Below are positions 2,493-56,941 of a stretch of DNA of 64,000 bases, in pieces (position 1 is the stretch's first letter; every line of letters starts with the position of its first letter). Both the position numbers and the translations under genes were made by a program. The DNA is taken from positions 2,166 through 66,165 of the forward strand of contig CALVNE010000004.1 of the NCBI GenBank assembly GCA_944349515.1. Direction: 5' to 3'. The stretch comes from an uncultured Clostridia bacterium. Lineage in GTDB: Bacteria > Bacillota > Clostridia > Christensenellales > UBA1242. Under the pieces are notes generated by a model, which did not search any database, was not told the origin of the DNA, and saw nothing but the letters and a program-made list of their open reading frames with translations.

Positions 2493-5400
2493 ATTTTCAA
2501 GAGCGCATTTTAAAATATAACGAGATTGGTGGCTTGACCATTGGCGAAAAGTCCGTTTTACTTCTTTCTTTAAAACGGGCGGTTTATCTCTGTGGCGATT
2601 TCGTGACGGCAAGCAAGTTAAAGTTCGCCCTTTCTTCGCAAGGTAAAAAGGTGGAGATTGTGGCGTGCGGACGCGAGGTAGAGGACGAGCGCGACCCGAA
2701 CCTCTATCCTTTTTCTAAAGCGCTTTCAAATTTTTTTGGCGAGGAAATTGACTATTTAATTTTTTTGCCGTCGTCCATGACAACCAAGTTCGACGCCGAT
2801 TTTTTGAAGAAAAGTTTGCTTATTCATAAAGGCGAGGAATACGATTTTGCTGCTCTTTCTTCTACGCTAATCGAATTTGGCTATGAGCGGGTGGAGTACG
2901 TCAACATCGAGGGGCAATTTTCGGTGCGAGGAGATATAGTTGACCTCTTTCTTTTTGGCGATGACAGCCCATCGCGCCTTGAGTTTTTCGACGATGAGGT
3001 GGAGAGGATAATCCATTTCGACGCCTCCTCCATGAAAACGATAAAGGAACTTGACAGCATAAAAATCACTCCGCTTGTTTTAAAACTCGGCGAAAGTATT
3101 GTCACCGATATCTATGACACGGTGGTTTTTGACGAGCCTATTAAGATAGAAAATGAGTGCAAAATTTTAAAGGATAGCCGGCAAAATCTCTCATGGGCGG
3201 AAGAAAAAATGTTTGCTGATTTTGAAAAATTGACGCAAAAAAAGCATATAACTTTTGCCAACATCGGCGAGGAAAAATATGAGAACAAAACGATAGGACA
3301 GAAAAGTTACCTTACCGACTTTAACTCGCTTAAAAAGGACATTGTGCTTTATCAGCATGATAGCAATGCGGTTATCCTTTTTGCCGGGCGCTTTCACGAA
3401 CTTATGAAGGAATTTTTGGTGACGAACAAGATTGCCTTTAAGTCGCTTGAAGAGGTGAAGCGGGAGGAGCTTGAGGAAAAAAACGTCTATGTTTCAAGCA
3501 CGTATTACCCGTTTTCGTTCAGTTTTTTAAAAGAAAAAATTATCGCAATTGGCACCGACGATTTATATAAGCCAAAGCGCATCGAGTTTAAAAAGGGTAA
3601 GGAAAAGTTATCGTTTTTGCCTAAGGTAGGCGACTATGTTGTGCATTCCTTTTACGGCATTGGAATTTGCAAGGATATCGTTCGGCTGAAACTTTCCACT
3701 TTTGAAAAGGACTACTTTGTGCTAGAATACAAAAATGGCGCTCTTTTGTATCTCCCAACTGAACAGGCGAACGTCCTTTCGGCGTACATCGGCGGAGAAA
3801 ACCCCAAACTCAACGCGCTCGGCTCGCAAGAGTGGGTGCATTTAAAAAATAAGGTTAAAGAGAACCTTAAAGAGGTGGCGATAGAACTTGCAAAGATATA
3901 TAAACAGCGCGCTACAGTTAAGGGCTATAAATTCACGCGTGATGAGGAACTTGAAAGGGAGTTCGACGAGTTTTTTCCGTACGAACTGACCCCGGATCAG
4001 CAAGAGGCAATCTCGGACGTCGACAAGGATATGGAAAGCGACAAAATCATGGATAGGCTCATCTGTGGCGATGTCGGCTTTGGTAAGACAGAAGTGGCAT
4101 TCCGCGCGTGTTTTAAGGCGGTGTATAATTCTAAGCAAGTGGCATTTCTCTGCCCAACCACCATACTTTCCGAACAACATTTCCGCTCGGCAAGCGAGAG
4201 GTTTAAGCCTTTCGGCGTGAGGGTGGAAGTTTTAAACCGCTTTAAGTCGCAAAAAGAAACGAACGAAATTTTAGCAAAACTAAAAAATGGCGAAATAGAC
4301 ATACTCATTGGCACGCACAAATTGCTCGGCAAGGAGGTTGTGTTTAAGGATATCGGGCTTTTGGTACTCGATGAAGAACAGCGCTTTGGCGTTAAGGATA
4401 AGGAAAAAATCAAAAAATTGAAGGAGAACATCGACGTTTTAACCCTCTCAGCAACGCCAATTCCGCGCACCCTTCATATGTCGCTAAGTAGCATTCGCGA
4501 CATCAGCGTTATCGCCACTCCGCCTAAGGATAGGTTGCCCATTCAAACCTATGTCACCGATTATAGCGACCAACTTTTGGTGGATACTACCCGCCGAGAA
4601 CTTGCGCGCGGTGGGAAGGTGCTTATCCTTTTTAACCGTGTTATAGAGATATATAACTTCGCCTCGCACGTGAGAAGTCTTATTCCGGAAGGTAAGGTGG
4701 GCGTGGCGCACGGGCAGATGATGGAAAAGGAACTTGCGAGTATCATCAACGACTTATACGACAACAAATTCAACATCTTCATCTCCACCACACTCATTGA
4801 AAACGGCATCGACTTGCCGGCGCTTAACACCCTTTTTGTGCTGGATAGCGATAAACTTGGGCTAAGTCAACTCTACCAAATTCGCGGAAGAATTGGGCGT
4901 GGAGATAAACTCGCCTATGCCTATCTCACCTTCGACAGGGGCAAGTTTTTAACTGAGGACGCGTACAAGCGCTTAGACGCAATAACCGAATTTAGAGAAC
5001 TTGGAAGCGGTTTTAAAATTGCCATGCGCGACCTCGAAATTCGTGGCGCGGGCAACATCTTAGGCAAGGAACAGCACGGGCATATGCAAAAGATAGGCTA
5101 TGATATGTATCTTAAACTTCTCGACGAGGTGACGCGTTCGCTTAAAGGCGGTTTGGACGCTGAGACTAAGGAAATTAAAATTGAAATGCCTCTCGACGCG
5201 TATATTAGCGATTCCTACATTGAATCGCAAGAGGAACGAATTGTCTATTACGATAAGATAAGTCACATCTCCTCTAGTTTCGAAAAAGAGGAGGTTTTAA
5301 AGGAACTAGCCCTTTTAAGTGGCGACGTGCCGAAGGAAACAAAAAACCTTTGCGATATCGCGCTTCTTAAAAACTTGGCGCTTAACTTCAATGTTAAACT

Positions 5401-53162: not shown

Positions 53163-53248
53163 GCAAAGTTTAGTTTTAGCACGAAAAAGATTTAAAATCA
53201 TTTTTTTGATTTTGTTATATAAAATATTTTTGTTTAATAAAATACAAT

Positions 53249-53464
53249 ATGAAATTTTTAACAATAAAAAAGGCACATTGTGCCATTCTTTTGGTTATTC
53301 TAGTTGCAATCTGTTTGATTGTCGGCGTTTGCTATGCGGCTAGGGCGACGAGTTCGCCGAAGGCACAATACACCATTGTGATTGACGCAGGGCATGGTGG
53401 AGTAGATGTCAAGTTAGGACAGTATATTTTAAATCCTAAAAGTCAATTCTTACATATTTTTTAG
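53249..53464 (+). pseudogene. 5' fragment of a cwlD-type N-acetylmuramoyl-L-alanine amidase gene
   Basis: The first 51 codons (MKFLTIKK...YTIVIDAGHGG) parallel the intact cwlD at 56261. Similarity ends at about 53401, and 20 unrelated codons follow before the stop. Confidence 0.7.
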
Positions 53465-53507
53465 GTATAAGAAAAAAGCATATCATTTGATATTCTTTAA
53501 TTAAGTT

Positions 53508-54539
53508 TTATTGTAGCCAATCTCTTTCGGTAGTTTCTTCCCATATATCTTTTAAAAGTTTACCATCAATTTTAGCATTGTTTATAAAATCTTCCTTTGT
53601 TTTGAATGTTTGCAAATGCCCACCATTAAAATCATTCATTTTAATGATTTCTTTGTTTTCATCGGATGTGAGAATTAGCTCGTAGTATATATTTTTGTAT
53701 TTAAATTGAACTTCGCTATACACATATAATGCTTCGATAAAATCTTCTAGGTCAGGTTCAAAAGGCTTATATTCACTGTATAATTTTTTCGCTTTGTTTA
53801 GTGAGATAAGATTTGGGTAGATAACTCTGTTTTTAAATTTATTTGCAAATTTATCAAATTTCCAACCGCAGTTTTCGCACTCGCCGTTTCCGAATTGGTC
53901 TTTTAGACATTTATTTCCGCAAACAGGGCACTTTATTTTGTATTTTCTTTTGAAAGTGCTATCTTTTCCGCAAATTAGGCAAGCGCCATTATAAGTATCA
54001 ACCGTTATATAGTGTCCGCAGTCGCATTTGTAATTTGCCATTGAAAAACTTTGAGATGGCTTTTCTGTTAGACTTTCTACTACATTAAAAATCTGTTCGA
54101 GATTATCAAAGTCCGCATAGATAATAAATTTTGTATCTTTTGATTTTTCGATGTTGTTTTTTGTTTCTTTTAAATCTTCAGAGTTATAAAGTTCTTGCTG
54201 ATAATTGTATCCATATATAAGATATTTGAGATTTGCAAAAACTTTCAAATTAAGCGATAAAAGTTCCCCTTTATTTGGGTAGAGTTTTATGTAACCAATA
54301 TAGTTTTTGTTCGTATAGACATCAAAAAAAGTTTCAGTTTTTATTCCTTTCTGTTTGAAGCGGATAATAGGAATCGGATATAATTCATTTGTAAATTGCC
54401 CACCTATTTTTATTCTATGCCCATAATGAAAATCTAACGCATGGTCGACACAATTTTTGCTAAGAAATTTTGACATTTTTTCCATTTTTTCAAATGCAGA
54501 TGCATAAATTTTGTTTAAATTTTTAACAGTTTTTCTCAT
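53508..54539 (-). CDS. hypothetical protein with central zinc ribbons including a CPCC-type Cys-rich domain
   Basis: 343 aa. Contains YKCDCGH...CLICG and KCPVCGNKCL...GECENCGWKFD...ISLNKAKKLY. The region is AT-rich. Confidence 0.6.
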   Translation of the reverse strand: MRKTVKNLNKIYASAFEKMEKMSKFLSKNCVDHALDFHYGHRIKIGGQFTNELYPIPIIRFKQKGIKTETFFDVYTNKNYIGYIKLYPNKGELLSLNLKVFANLKYLIYGYNYQQELYNSEDLKETKNNIEKSKDTKFIIYADFDNLEQIFNVVESLTEKPSQSFSMANYKCDCGHYITVDTYNGACLICGKDSTFKRKYKIKCPVCGNKCLKDQFGNGECENCGWKFDKFANKFKNRVIYPNLISLNKAKKLYSEYKPFEPDLEDFIEALYVYSEVQFKYKNIYYELILTSDENKEIIKMNDFNGGHLQTFKTKEDFINNAKIDGKLLKDIWEETTERDWLQ

Positions 54540-54546
54540 GTTTTTG

Positions 54547-54555
54547 ATTATATCA
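54547..54555 (-). promoter_or_regulatory. extended -10 (TGaTATAAT on the minus strand) 7 nt from the ATG at 54539 (leaderless candidate)
   Basis: The complement of 54547-54555 reads TGATATAAT, followed by CAAAAAC and the ATG. Confidence 0.4.
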
Positions 54556-54620
54556 TATTATTTTATTATTTAAAACAAATTTTCGCTCTAAATCATCTTT
54601 AAACCAAAACATTGTTTAAT

Positions 54621-54640
54621 ATGAAATTCTTAACAATAAA
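54621..54640 (+). repeat. isolated 20-nt copy of the cwlD start (ATGAAATTCTTAACAATAAA)
   Basis: Identical to 56261-56280 and 19/20 to 53249-53268. It is preceded by TTGTTTAAT, which also occurs upstream of copy 1. Confidence 0.75.
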
Positions 54641-54797
54641 TTAACTACGTCATTCTTTGAAATTTATGTCATATAAACTTGAATTTGCAAAAAATGTGAC
54701 TTAATATATTTCTATAAAAGTTTGTGAGAAGATTCTTTACAAACTTTTTTGTTAAAAGTCGAAAATTTTTATTAAAATAAGGAGAAAAGATGATATA

Positions 54798-55139
54798 ATG
54801 GAAAAAGGACCGAGTGAATACGCTGATAATTGGACATCACCTGAAAATGAAGTAGAACACTTTAAGCATGCAAAAGAATTTAATTTAAATCCATATGATT
54901 ATTCCGAAAGTGCGAAAAGATTTAAGGAAAATGAAGATGAAGATAATTTAATTTTTAAAACAGAGGATGGTACTACTTACAAATATAATGAAAAAACAAA
55001 AGAATTCATTATTATATCAAAAAACGGAAAAATTGTTACATACTTTAGAACGAGTTTAAGATATTTTTTGAAATTATTTAATGATTTAAATGGGAAATGG
55101 ATACAAGGAGGGAAATATGAGTTTATCCAACAAGAATAA
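54798..55139 (+). CDS. hypothetical small acidic protein
   Basis: 113 aa. AAGGAG lies upstream, and a 2-codon mini-ORF (ATG ATA TAA) overlaps the start. No family assigned. Confidence 0.5.
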   Translation: MEKGPSEYADNWTSPENEVEHFKHAKEFNLNPYDYSESAKRFKENEDEDNLIFKTEDGTTYKYNEKTKEFIIISKNGKIVTYFRTSLRYFLKLFNDLNGKWIQGGKYEFIQQE

Positions 55140-55443
55140 GAATCACCCGCATAAATGCAAAGTTTGTGGTTTGAGCGATATAGAGCATGCATTTGCAATA
55201 TGTAGAGTTTGTGGCTGGGAAGATGATATTATCCAAAACAATGATAAAGATTATATTGGTGGTGCGAACAATATGAGTTTCAATCAATATAAAAAATTTT
55301 GGAAAGAAAATAAAGAAGATATTTTGAAAAATCATAAGGACGACCTATTTTATGTTTATGAAAAAGCAGATAAATTTTACAAACAAAATTTCGAAGAAAG
55401 CAATTTGAAATATTTAAGCGAAATTGAGCCTGATTATGAATGA
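55117..55443 (+). CDS. CPCC-family cysteine-rich protein
   Basis: ATG at 55117 after GGAGGG. HKCKVCG...AICRVCGWEDDIIQNNDKDYIGGANNMSFNQYKKFW fits the CPCC Cys-rich domain pattern (CxxC...CxxCxWEDD...GGAN). Confidence 0.65.
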   Translation: MSLSNKNKNHPHKCKVCGLSDIEHAFAICRVCGWEDDIIQNNDKDYIGGANNMSFNQYKKFWKENKEDILKNHKDDLFYVYEKADKFYKQNFEESNLKYLSEIEPDYE

Positions 55444-56212
55444 ATTAAAACTTACAATGGAATTACTCCCAAAAGGCGCTTGGGGGAATGATTTAAGTAT
55501 AATATTGCCTAAAAAAGATTGGAATATATTAAGAGAGTTTGCTTTAAAAAGAGCAAATGGAAAATGTGAAGTATGTGGATATGAAAGCGACGACCTTGAT
55601 GTTCACGAAGAATGGGAATTTGATATTAAAAATAAAACTCAAACTTTAAAGGATATAATCGCAATTTGCAGTAGTTGTCATGGTGTAAAGCATTTCAGAA
55701 ATTCAAGACGAATAGGATTTGAAGAAGAAGCGAAAAAGCATTTTATGGAAGTTAATGATTGTAATGAATTTGAATTTGCTGCTCATTCAACTCAGGCAGA
55801 AATTTTATTCAATGAAAGAAATGAAATATATTTTTGGAAGATGAAATTAAATTTATTAAAGTTTGGTGGAGAAGAAATCTCCATTCCAGATATAACAAGG
55901 TTAAAAATTTTGAATCCATATAGTGAAAACGATTTAGAAGATTTGAAAAATAAAATTAACTTATTGCCTAGAATTTTAAATATAGAAGTAAATAATTATT
56001 CAGGAGACATAATTGTTAAAAGTGATATTTCTAATAAAATAGTTTGGTTTGTTGATAATAAAATAGCAAAAACTCAGTTTAATTTTGCACATATATTAAA
56101 ATCAGTTTTTTCTGTCGTTGGGTTAAAAGGTGAAAATGTGTATTTTAAACTATATGGGGATTATGGAGAAATAAATTCAAAAGTATTTAAGCTAGAAAAT
56201 TGGGGATATTAA
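55436..56212 (+). CDS. HNH-like (CxxC...H...CxxCH) zinc-finger nuclease-type protein
   Basis: ATG at 55436 overlaps the previous stop (TATGAATGA). Contains GKCEVCGYESDDLDVHEEWEF...ICSSCHGVKH. The C-terminal 130 aa are unassigned. Confidence 0.5.
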   Translation: MNELKLTMELLPKGAWGNDLSIILPKKDWNILREFALKRANGKCEVCGYESDDLDVHEEWEFDIKNKTQTLKDIIAICSSCHGVKHFRNSRRIGFEEEAKKHFMEVNDCNEFEFAAHSTQAEILFNERNEIYFWKMKLNLLKFGGEEISIPDITRLKILNPYSENDLEDLKNKINLLPRILNIEVNNYSGDIIVKSDISNKIVWFVDNKIAKTQFNFAHILKSVFSVVGLKGENVYFKLYGDYGEINSKVFKLENWGY

Positions 56213-56260
56213 TATCCTCTTTTTTGTTATAAAAAGTAAAGAATAAAAATATGTTATTAT

Positions 56261-56941
56261 ATGAAATTCTTAACAATAAAAAAGCGCACTATATTGTTTG
56301 TTTTGACTGCGGTTATTTTGCTCTTCTCGGTCATTGGAGCCTGCTTTGTCATCCAAGCATCTTCGCCAAAGGCATTATACACCATTGTGATTGACGCGGG
56401 GCATGGCGGGCGTGACGGCGGTGCAGTGGGCAGCACTGGGGTGACAGAGAGTGAACTAAATTTAGAGTTTAGTTTGGAATTGAAAGAATTGTGCGAGGAG
56501 TATGGTTTTAAAGTGGTGCTGACGCGCAAGGATATGAACGGGCTATATTCGCTTTTTGCCACCAACAAGAAGAAGAGCGAGATGAAAAAGCGCCAAGAGA
56601 TTATTGAAAAGGCAAAGCCAGACGTGGTGGTCAGCATACACATGAACAGTTTTTCGTCTTCATCCAGTGGGGCACAGTGCTTTTATGCGAGTGGTAATGA
56701 GGCTGGAGAAAAACTTGCAACAAGAGTGCAGCAGGCGTTGTCAACCGAGATTGAGCATACCGGCACAACTGCAAAGGTCGGCGATTTCTATGTGCTTAAT
56801 TGCACAGATTACGCCAGTGTTTTGGTGGAGTGCGGATTTCTTTCTAACCCAGAAGAAGAACAAAAACTTTGCGACGAAGAATATCAAACCAACTTTTGCC
56901 GAACGCTTTTATATGGCATATTGGATTATTTTGAGATGTGA
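56261..56941 (+). CDS. cwlD: N-acetylmuramoyl-L-alanine amidase, CwlD-like (germination-specific type)
   Basis: 226 aa with an N-terminal TM. Amidase_3 motifs are present: IDAGHGGRDGGAVG, SIHMNS and ECGFLSNPEE. Confidence 0.8.
   Translation: MKFLTIKKRTILFVLTAVILLFSVIGACFVIQASSPKALYTIVIDAGHGGRDGGAVGSTGVTESELNLEFSLELKELCEEYGFKVVLTRKDMNGLYSLFATNKKKSEMKKRQEIIEKAKPDVVVSIHMNSFSSSSSGAQCFYASGNEAGEKLATRVQQALSTEIEHTGTTAKVGDFYVLNCTDYASVLVECGFLSNPEEEQKLCDEEYQTNFCRTLLYGILDYFEM

Follow-up and report, generated by a model that had tools for sequence, protein, structure and literature searches.

How does a block of foreign-looking genes come to lie between a broken and a complete copy of the same gene, and what do the genes in it do? 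These questions are raised by a locus in an uncultured Clostridia bacterium of the Christensenellales (assembly GCA_944349515.1), found on a 64,000-nucleotide stretch of contig CALVNE010000004.1 that is referred to here as the window. An earlier note, made from the sequence alone, described a foreign island at 53508-56212 with four genes: two coding for zinc-ribbon proteins of the CPCC type, one for an HNH-like protein and one for a small acidic protein. All four open reading frames (ORFs) are real, and the coordinates of the genes, here called p343, p113, CPCC and HNH, have been re-read. The low G+C content of the island is likewise confirmed, at 0.26-0.28 across 54-56 kb as against ~0.43 around it. 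Two cassettes make up the island, both gained by horizontal transfer and lodged at a single, exact codon of a cwlD-like amidase gene. The island belongs, in decaying form, to a widespread and undescribed cassette family, in which toxin/immunity modules of known type accompany a core made of a DUF4417 gene and an HNH gene. The earlier note had seen neither that copies of the amidase 5' end bound the island nor that its operon has lost one gene. Taken as a whole, the reading of 53408-56415 as a two-cassette array of conflict genes, acquired horizontally at a fixed amidase codon, is considered probable. Its anatomy, homologies, gene co-occurrence and deletion are observed; toxicity and its neutralisation, the sequence in which the cassettes arrived and the action of DUF4417-HNH are inferred. 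The genome measures 1.49 Mb, and genomes of its genus 0.8-1.3 Mb. The features of the locus are listed below; handles beginning with L and G denote loci and genomes of relatives.

53206..53407, +, first displaced amidase copy (promoter and 5' end); direct repeat of 56218-56415, ~85-90% identity
53408..53425, +, junction motif GTCAAGTTAGGACAGTAT, 18 nt, left terminus of a cassette; found at all 15 truncated copies examined
53508..54539, -, p343, immunity-type protein, 343 amino acids (aa); CPCC domain, 8EY4 chain I, phrog_3711
54547..54574, -, promoter-like site of p343, TTTAAA-16-TG-TATAAT; recognised by consensus alone
54608..54645, +, vestige of a second displaced amidase start, ATGAAATTCTTAACAATAAA; divides cassette A from cassette B
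54798..55139, +, p113, predicted free-standing colicin-D/CdiA-CT-like (BECR-type) toxin domain, 113 aa; family profile against 8EY4 chain A
55117..55443, +, CPCC117, predicted CPCC zinc-ribbon immunity protein, 108 aa; PDB 8EY3/8EY4 chain I, PF14206
55432..55439, +, deletion scar, DUF4417 and linker lost; alignment to L116, of which 778 bp (4222-4999) are absent
55436..56212, +, HNH nuclease, 258 aa, with CCCH zinc finger (1-146) and immunoglobulin (Ig)/FN3-like beta-sandwich (~179-254); phrog_5200, AlphaFold2 (AF2) model
56202..56219, +, intrinsic-terminator-like hairpin over the HNH stop codon
56218..56415, +, cassette-borne replacement promoter ('U2' type) and amidase 5' end to G-H-G-G-R-D; cross-species identity pattern
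56261..56941, +, intact CwlD-like N-acetylmuramoyl-L-alanine amidase, the target gene; Pfam Amidase_3, E 7e-44

Two cassettes at one codon of an amidase gene

The amidase matches the spore_cwlD family TIGR02883 at E 3e-54 with 184 bits, which is below the 221-bit cut-off. An ORF at 53249-53464 starts like the amidase gene (56261-56941) and breaks off after the codons G-H-G-G-V-D, so that ~200 bp are duplicated in all, comprising the amidase promoter region and its first 53 codons (53206-53407 and 56218-56415). A third, vestigial amidase start lies between the two, at 54608-54645, and contains a 23-nt exact match to the amidase start of L118; intact equivalents of it are found in L037, L040 and L065. 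The island is therefore made of two cassettes, with p343 in cassette A and p113, CPCC and HNH in cassette B.

The same break recurs across relatives. In all 15 truncated copies, from the window and 10 other genomes, it falls after the codons G-H-G-G-x-D, and GTCAAGTTAGGACAGTAT continues every copy, beyond which the sequence differs from cassette to cassette. In L025 the motif is retained despite a different reading frame, so its conservation acts at the DNA level. No copies of the 18-nt motif were found away from the junction in 31 genomes, either as a free attP or as a dispersed repeat. One or two truncated 5' copies precede the amidase gene in G015, G010, G002 and G003, with cargo between them, and two or three partition different cassettes in the arrays of L037, L040, L065 and G003. 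Congeners have other cargo at the amidase site, among it a gene for an ankyrin protein as well as a DUF6883/DUF4926 pair, and no empty site was seen among the 14 congener loci examined. The rebuilt amidase gene is intact, with its G-H-G-G site, in every genome. This is a recurrent, codon-precise hot spot in a sporulation gene of small-genome gut Christensenellales, where cassettes stack while the gene stays unbroken and no recombinase is visible.

The extent of the inserted unit can be read from comparison with the cassettes of other species, to which the window is 85-88% identical from 54658 to 56409-56464 and 70-75% identical thereafter. The shared segment starts just past the expected position of the motif and ends at the G-H-G-G site of the next copy, limits which fit a unit of motif, cargo, new promoter and amidase 5' end. 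The replacement promoter and amidase 5' end fall in the part of this high-identity run from 55435 to 56409-56464, and the U2 type of upstream region always lies 3' of a plus-strand HNH gene. In the mechanism proposed here, each arriving cassette would carry the 18-nt motif first and its own amidase promoter and 5' end last; because the cassette supplies these, the gene would be rebuilt and the earlier 5' end left behind as a truncated copy. The window would thus hold two such leftovers, one intact and one vestigial.

Cassettes of this family are also found away from the amidase gene. A tyrosine integrase (PF00589), often truncated, adjoins the cassette at ~24 non-amidase loci, usually directly upstream. 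Three clear cases have direct repeats of 100-125 bp on either side of the cassette, beginning inside tRNA 3' ends (L103, L113) or lying at the 3' terminus of a small gene (L107); at most other non-amidase loci no flanking repeats were found within 6 kb. The repeats at tRNA ends and the neighbouring integrases therefore mark these cassettes as mobile cargo of small integrative islets. Set against what defines an integrase-borne islet, the window has the direct repeats of a target gene and lacks a recombinase within the element, while four PF00589 genes are present elsewhere in this genome. Entry at the amidase gene could rely on an integrase supplied in trans, on Campbell insertion, dependent on RecA, of circles with the 200-bp homology, or on the DUF4417-HNH pair itself; the fixed 18-nt end on cassettes with unrelated content favours a site-specific step. 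An origin as a prophage remnant was rejected, as the island has no structural or replication genes and its 3-4-gene unit recurs as a discrete module.

Toxin-like and immunity-type genes

The first gene of cassette B had been described as encoding a small acidic protein of unknown role. The acidity is real, if mild (isoelectric point 5.3), and the role is no longer obscure, since p113 resembles a toxin domain. As a single sequence it matches chain A of PDB entry 8EY4, a 'PT-VENN domain-containing protein', at only E 0.32; a profile of 24 p113 homologues matches the same chain at E 2.7e-7 over its whole length (residues 9-88 of 88). In this family His24 is invariant and His21 nearly so. p113 begins at its own ATG with a Shine-Dalgarno (SD) sequence, as do all 24 homologues, with the N-terminus MEKGPS.

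The next gene overlaps p113 by 23 nt (55117-55139), which is seen directly in the sequence, as is the 8-nt overlap between the CPCC and HNH genes (55436-55443). The CPCC gene probably begins with the ATG at 55117, 6 nt downstream of the SD AGGAGGG; the other possible start codon, an ATG at 55090, lacks an SD. That CPCC domains occur in two of the island's proteins holds, with Pfam Cys_rich_CPCC found above threshold twice, and the small protein reaches E 1.3e-11 against PF14206 (44.5 bits, cut-off 24.5 bits). By phmmer, CPCC117 also matches the 'Cys_rich_CPCC domain-containing protein' of the same solved complex, at E 1.7e-11 for 8EY3_A and 2.3e-11 for 8EY4_I. Because p113 and CPCC117 match the two chains of 8EY4, p113 is predicted to be a free-standing colicin-D/CdiA-CT-like toxin domain and CPCC117 its immunity partner. 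The toxin-immunity idea of the earlier note thus stands, with its roles reassigned: the candidate for the toxin is p113 rather than HNH. Its further statement that nothing here matches a described system no longer applies to the p113/CPCC pair, and still applies to the DUF4417-HNH core.

The described system is an E. coli complex of a CdiA-CT (PT-VENN) toxin with a Cys_rich_CPCC protein (8EY4; immunity protein alone, 8EY3). Both of its partners are homologous to those in the window, and the order of toxin gene followed by immunity gene, with tight coupling, is shared. Unlike its counterpart, p113 stands alone, without a VENN pre-toxin motif, filamentous delivery region or signal, and close relatives of the window have the immunity domain as part of a fusion with DUF4417. 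The likeness to colicin D and its immunity protein ImmD is more distant. The p113 family profile matches colicin D tRNase (catalytic) domains at E 0.04-0.06, which is below significance when taken alone, and this likeness would place p113 in the same RNase-toxin superfamily; however, the immunity protein of colicin D is of another fold class, that of the window being a zinc ribbon, and translocation and receptor domains are absent here.

It is proposed that p113 would act as an RNase domain that lacks a delivery part, and that the product of the overlapping, translationally coupled CPCC gene would bind and neutralise it. The two would most likely form an intracellular addiction/immunity pair, which could either stabilise the island or protect the cell from the same toxin delivered by competitors. 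Two of four 'unknown' genes thereby gain a concrete, testable function as putative toxin and antidote. Literature searches found no functional study of CPCC/PF14206 or of 8EY4; immunity is a barely documented role for CPCC proteins, to which the window adds an example from gut Clostridia. Tandem runs of 4-5 paralogous CPCC genes, of the 117-aa or 152-aa type, occur in single cassettes of relatives (L034 2396-4233; L069 7183-9812), which is the pattern of immunity-gene arrays.

Cassette A carries the second CPCC protein, p343, on the other strand. It is made up of an N-domain (1-165), the extra CxC...CxxC zinc ribbon noticed earlier (172-191), a CPCC domain (203-258; Pfam E 2.9e-8, 8EY4 chain I E 0.004) and a C-domain (263-335; phrog_3711). 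In relatives, the CPCC and C-domains are shared with 152-aa proteins encoded after a gene called sm91 (91-107 aa), in a series that runs from the sm91 toxin-tip through CPCC+C-domain paralogues to p343 in last place. The sm91 profile matched 832 representative proteins, and in many of these the domain sits at the very C-terminal end of a chain 400-2,000 aa long, a placement that is the signature of a polymorphic-toxin tip. No sm91 gene is present in the window, so p343 is an orphan immunity-type protein; cassette A would then consist of p343 alone, directed against a YD-type toxin tip that is absent from the genome. With the -10 box of its promoter-like site ending 7 nt upstream of the ATG, and with no visible SD, p343 may be translated from a leaderless mRNA. 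A 6,802-aa protein encoded at 12789-33197 of the window was considered as a carrier of the matching toxin tip with a downstream CPCC gene and was ruled out, as neither was found. This ORF has a lipoprotein-type start and repetitive beta-helix-like blocks, and the gene that follows it is RadC-like.

The HNH protein and its lost DUF4417 partner

The HNH-like finger proposed earlier is well supported. Across 46 homologues there is no variation at C44, C47, H57, E58, C78, C81, H82 and H86, which include the zinc-finger cysteines and the catalytic His. At the place of the canonical Asn of the H-N-H motif, after the first strand, N66 varies within the family, and T68 and Q69 are the invariant residues instead. 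Residues 7-146 match phrog_5200 ('HNH endonuclease') at E 4e-25, and the protein falls just under the Pfam PF01844 cut-off (18.6 bits, 21.4 required). In the AF2 model (predicted local distance difference test, pLDDT, 94.6) the N-domain superposes on models of phage HNH endonucleases with template-modelling (TM) scores of 0.74-0.81 and root-mean-square deviations of 2.2-2.7 A; a fold search of the C-domain against the PDB gave only weak, generic Ig/FN3 matches. The phage proteins in question, from rV5-like phages (Vequintavirinae), agree in fold with the first 140 residues of the window protein and share 37-40% identity with them. They differ in being ~140-154 aa long, without the Ig-like C-domain of the window protein, and in showing no pairing with DUF4417 in the phage records examined. 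More than 240 full-length homologues of the window protein were found, none with a name or Pfam domain, and the family is confined to uncultured gut Clostridia labelled Christensenella, Christensenellales, Candidatus Onthoplasma and similar.

The earlier note had thought a toxin-immunity module with HNH as nuclease-like partner compatible with the island; among homologues, however, the partner of HNH is DUF4417 and not a CPCC protein. Gene neighbourhoods were counted at 80 species-level loci around the HNH gene. A DUF4417 gene ending no more than 80 bp upstream of HNH was found at 79 of the 80, and the last locus is cut by the contig edge. All other neighbours are optional: p113 (29/80) and CPCC117 (30/80) occur upstream, sm91 (40/80) and CPCC+C-domain genes (39/80) downstream, p113 and sm91 are found together at three loci, and a full amidase gene lies inside the HNH locus at 27. 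Co-occurrence of homologues, which the earlier note had named as a check, is thus strong, with DUF4417 as the constant partner. With one GTDB species-representative genome taken per species, HNH loci number at least 131, and DUF4417-HNH stands out across them as an invariant gene pair.

DUF4417 was not found in the window or anywhere else in this genome. In the closest relatives (L031, L036, L038, L094 and L116) CPCC is fused to DUF4417, in proteins of 358-370 aa, and the window protein is the remaining N-terminal part of such a fusion. The deletion junction shows the microhomology GATTATGA/GATATGA, and the SD of HNH (AGGTG in relatives) was lost together with DUF4417. Cassette B is accordingly read as the remnant of a conserved operon of toxin, CPCC immunity-DUF4417 fusion and HNH/Ig-like nuclease, from which a microhomology deletion has taken the DUF4417 domain and the HNH ribosome-binding site, leaving HNH orphaned and intact. 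All invariant residues are kept, and the ratio of non-synonymous to synonymous substitution rates (dN/dS) of HNH is 0.10-0.23, no higher than in relatives that retain DUF4417. Either the loss of DUF4417 is recent, or HNH is independent of it; HNH could have an independent function in this genome. This natural deletion with HNH intact argues against DUF4417 as an indispensable antidote and narrows the hypotheses. The HNH gene (55435-56212, aligned to L116 5000-5777) is 94.7% identical to its L116 counterpart at the DNA level, while the CPCC region and amidase flanks are 75-80% identical; this excess suggests a recent gene-sized exchange or conversion.

As to what DUF4417 itself does, no functional study was found in literature searches. 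The domain has been found enriched in phages, where it is fused to ParB-CTPase folds much as DNA methyltransferases are (bioRxiv 10.1101/2025.10.10.680097). In several hundred phages of Mycobacterium and Gordonia (e.g. NC_054787) it is gene 1, at the left end of the genome; a few phage records annotate it as a nuclease, and Streptococcus phages have it as a fusion with ParB. A PDB sequence search with DUF4417 returned nothing. The AF2 model of a CPCC-DUF4417 fusion (pLDDT 81) has the TIM-barrel tRNA-guanine transglycosylases as its top fold match, weak at E 0.1 and TM 0.3; this modelled likeness is below significance and can serve as a lead only.

Competing explanations and related systems

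Several observations weigh against the preferred reading of a two-cassette array of conflict genes. Neither the island in the window nor any array at an amidase locus was found to contain a recombinase gene, and in G007 a cassette is present with no detectable amidase duplication. p113 has no secretion or delivery domain, no family could be assigned to the N-domain of p343 (1-165), and an intact HNH at dN/dS 0.1-0.23 without DUF4417 is hard to square with models in which DUF4417 is an essential antidote. In one rival, HNH, acting with DUF4417 as a homing-type or other site-specific nuclease, would cut the G-H-G-G site of cassette-free amidase genes and so drive insertion, with the toxin-immunity genes hitch-hiking; the absence of integrases from the amidase arrays speaks for it. 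Such a nuclease would suit a target at one exact codon in the most conserved, zinc-ligand motif of the gene. DUF4417-HNH is also the only invariant core of the cassettes, the HNH N-domain resembles free-standing endonucleases of large lytic phages, and the high identity of HNH to its L116 counterpart suggests a recent exchange the size of the gene. However, cassettes without HNH (those with the ankyrin protein, with DUF6883/DUF4926, or with p343 alone) use the same site and motif, elsewhere the cassettes lie at tRNA 3' ends or beside tyrosine integrases, and the G-H-G-G site survives in every rebuilt amidase gene; homing is judged unlikely. A bolder form of the idea, that DUF4417 and the HNH/Ig-like nuclease are an unrecognised, integrase-independent machine for DNA insertion or targeting that reads the 18-nt end and the cwlD G-H-G-G site, is held to be somewhat less likely still. 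If true, it would mean that the pair builds integron-like toxin/immunity arrays in the start of a sporulation gene, supplying promoter and 5' end anew at every insertion.

Defence and self-protection offer two further readings, both of which we regard as improbable. An anti-phage module, which the earlier note had raised, would have HNH as effector and the CPCC zinc-ribbon proteins as sensors or regulators, and the setting, a nuclease next to small coupled genes on a low-G+C island of variable content, has the look of one; toxin-antitoxin-like pairs, moreover, often work through abortive infection. Searches lend it no support: NCBIfam and PADLOC returned nothing useful for the four proteins, the single PADLOC 2.0 match among the window proteins was HEase at E 0.018, so that no known defence system was matched beyond that value, the extra cassette genes of relatives had no PADLOC match, and no recognised defence genes lie nearby. 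CPCC and p113 instead match a solved interbacterial toxin-immunity complex, and the neighbouring cassettes of relatives are modules of polymorphic-toxin type. Alternatively, DUF4417 may protect and HNH attack, in the manner of modification and restriction or of immunity and toxin, the window then holding a disarmed or silenced nuclease. Adjacency at 79 of 80 loci, the ParB-type fusions of DUF4417 in phages, as for DNA methyltransferases (bioRxiv 10.1101/2025.10.10.680097), the fold resemblance to base-exchange enzymes and the joint disappearance of DUF4417 and the HNH SD all point this way. The structural match is below significance, though, and HNH has kept its invariant residues under a dN/dS no different from that of relatives which still possess DUF4417.

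The array reading, by comparison, finds parallels in known systems. Orphan toxin/immunity cassette arrays of contact-dependent growth inhibition (CDI) and Rhs loci have reportedly been described by Poole and colleagues in 2011 and by Zhang, Aravind and colleagues in 2012. They share with the amidase arrays their toxin-tip and immunity modules, orphan immunity genes and tandem immunity paralogues, as well as a fragment of a conserved gene before each module that provides homology for recombination. The repeated fragment is there the toxin's own conserved region, whereas here it is the 5' end of cwlD, an unrelated housekeeping or sporulation gene; the toxins here also have no carrier protein, and an invariant DUF4417-HNH pair travels along. 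Site-specific accretion offers a second parallel, as in the arrays of integrative and conjugative elements (ICEs) and cis-mobilisable elements (CIMEs) at the 3' end of fda in Streptococcus thermophilus and in integron cassette arrays. These likewise have tandem cassettes between copies of an attachment region, some units without a recombinase, and a target restored by sequence from the element. In contrast to them, the amidase arrays have no integrase in or beside them, the target is a gene 5' end including its promoter, and the repeat is ~200 bp long at 75-90% identity, with the fixed 18-nt motif on one side only.

Some minor observations concern the loci of relatives. The hot spot between the amidase gene and a homologue of up239 also holds, in L023 (3327-5349) and L021 (6061-7032), radical-SAM and ATP-grasp-like proteins that are not toxin cassettes, the L023 pair following a decayed junction motif. 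In L028 (2525-5533) a gene for a reverse transcriptase of 658 aa (RVT_1, group-II-intron-like) directly precedes a DUF4417 gene truncated at its 5' end, which may reflect the insertion of an intron into the cassette. A second type of amidase upstream region, 'U1', contains the perfect palindrome AACATTGAAA-N8-TTTCAATGTT directly 5' of a TTGTGACA box; it is found in L017 (6830-6900) and also in L037, L065, L071 and L072, upstream of the amidase start, and could serve as an operator, or as a terminator working in both directions, between the divergently oriented genes for DUF4417 and the amidase.

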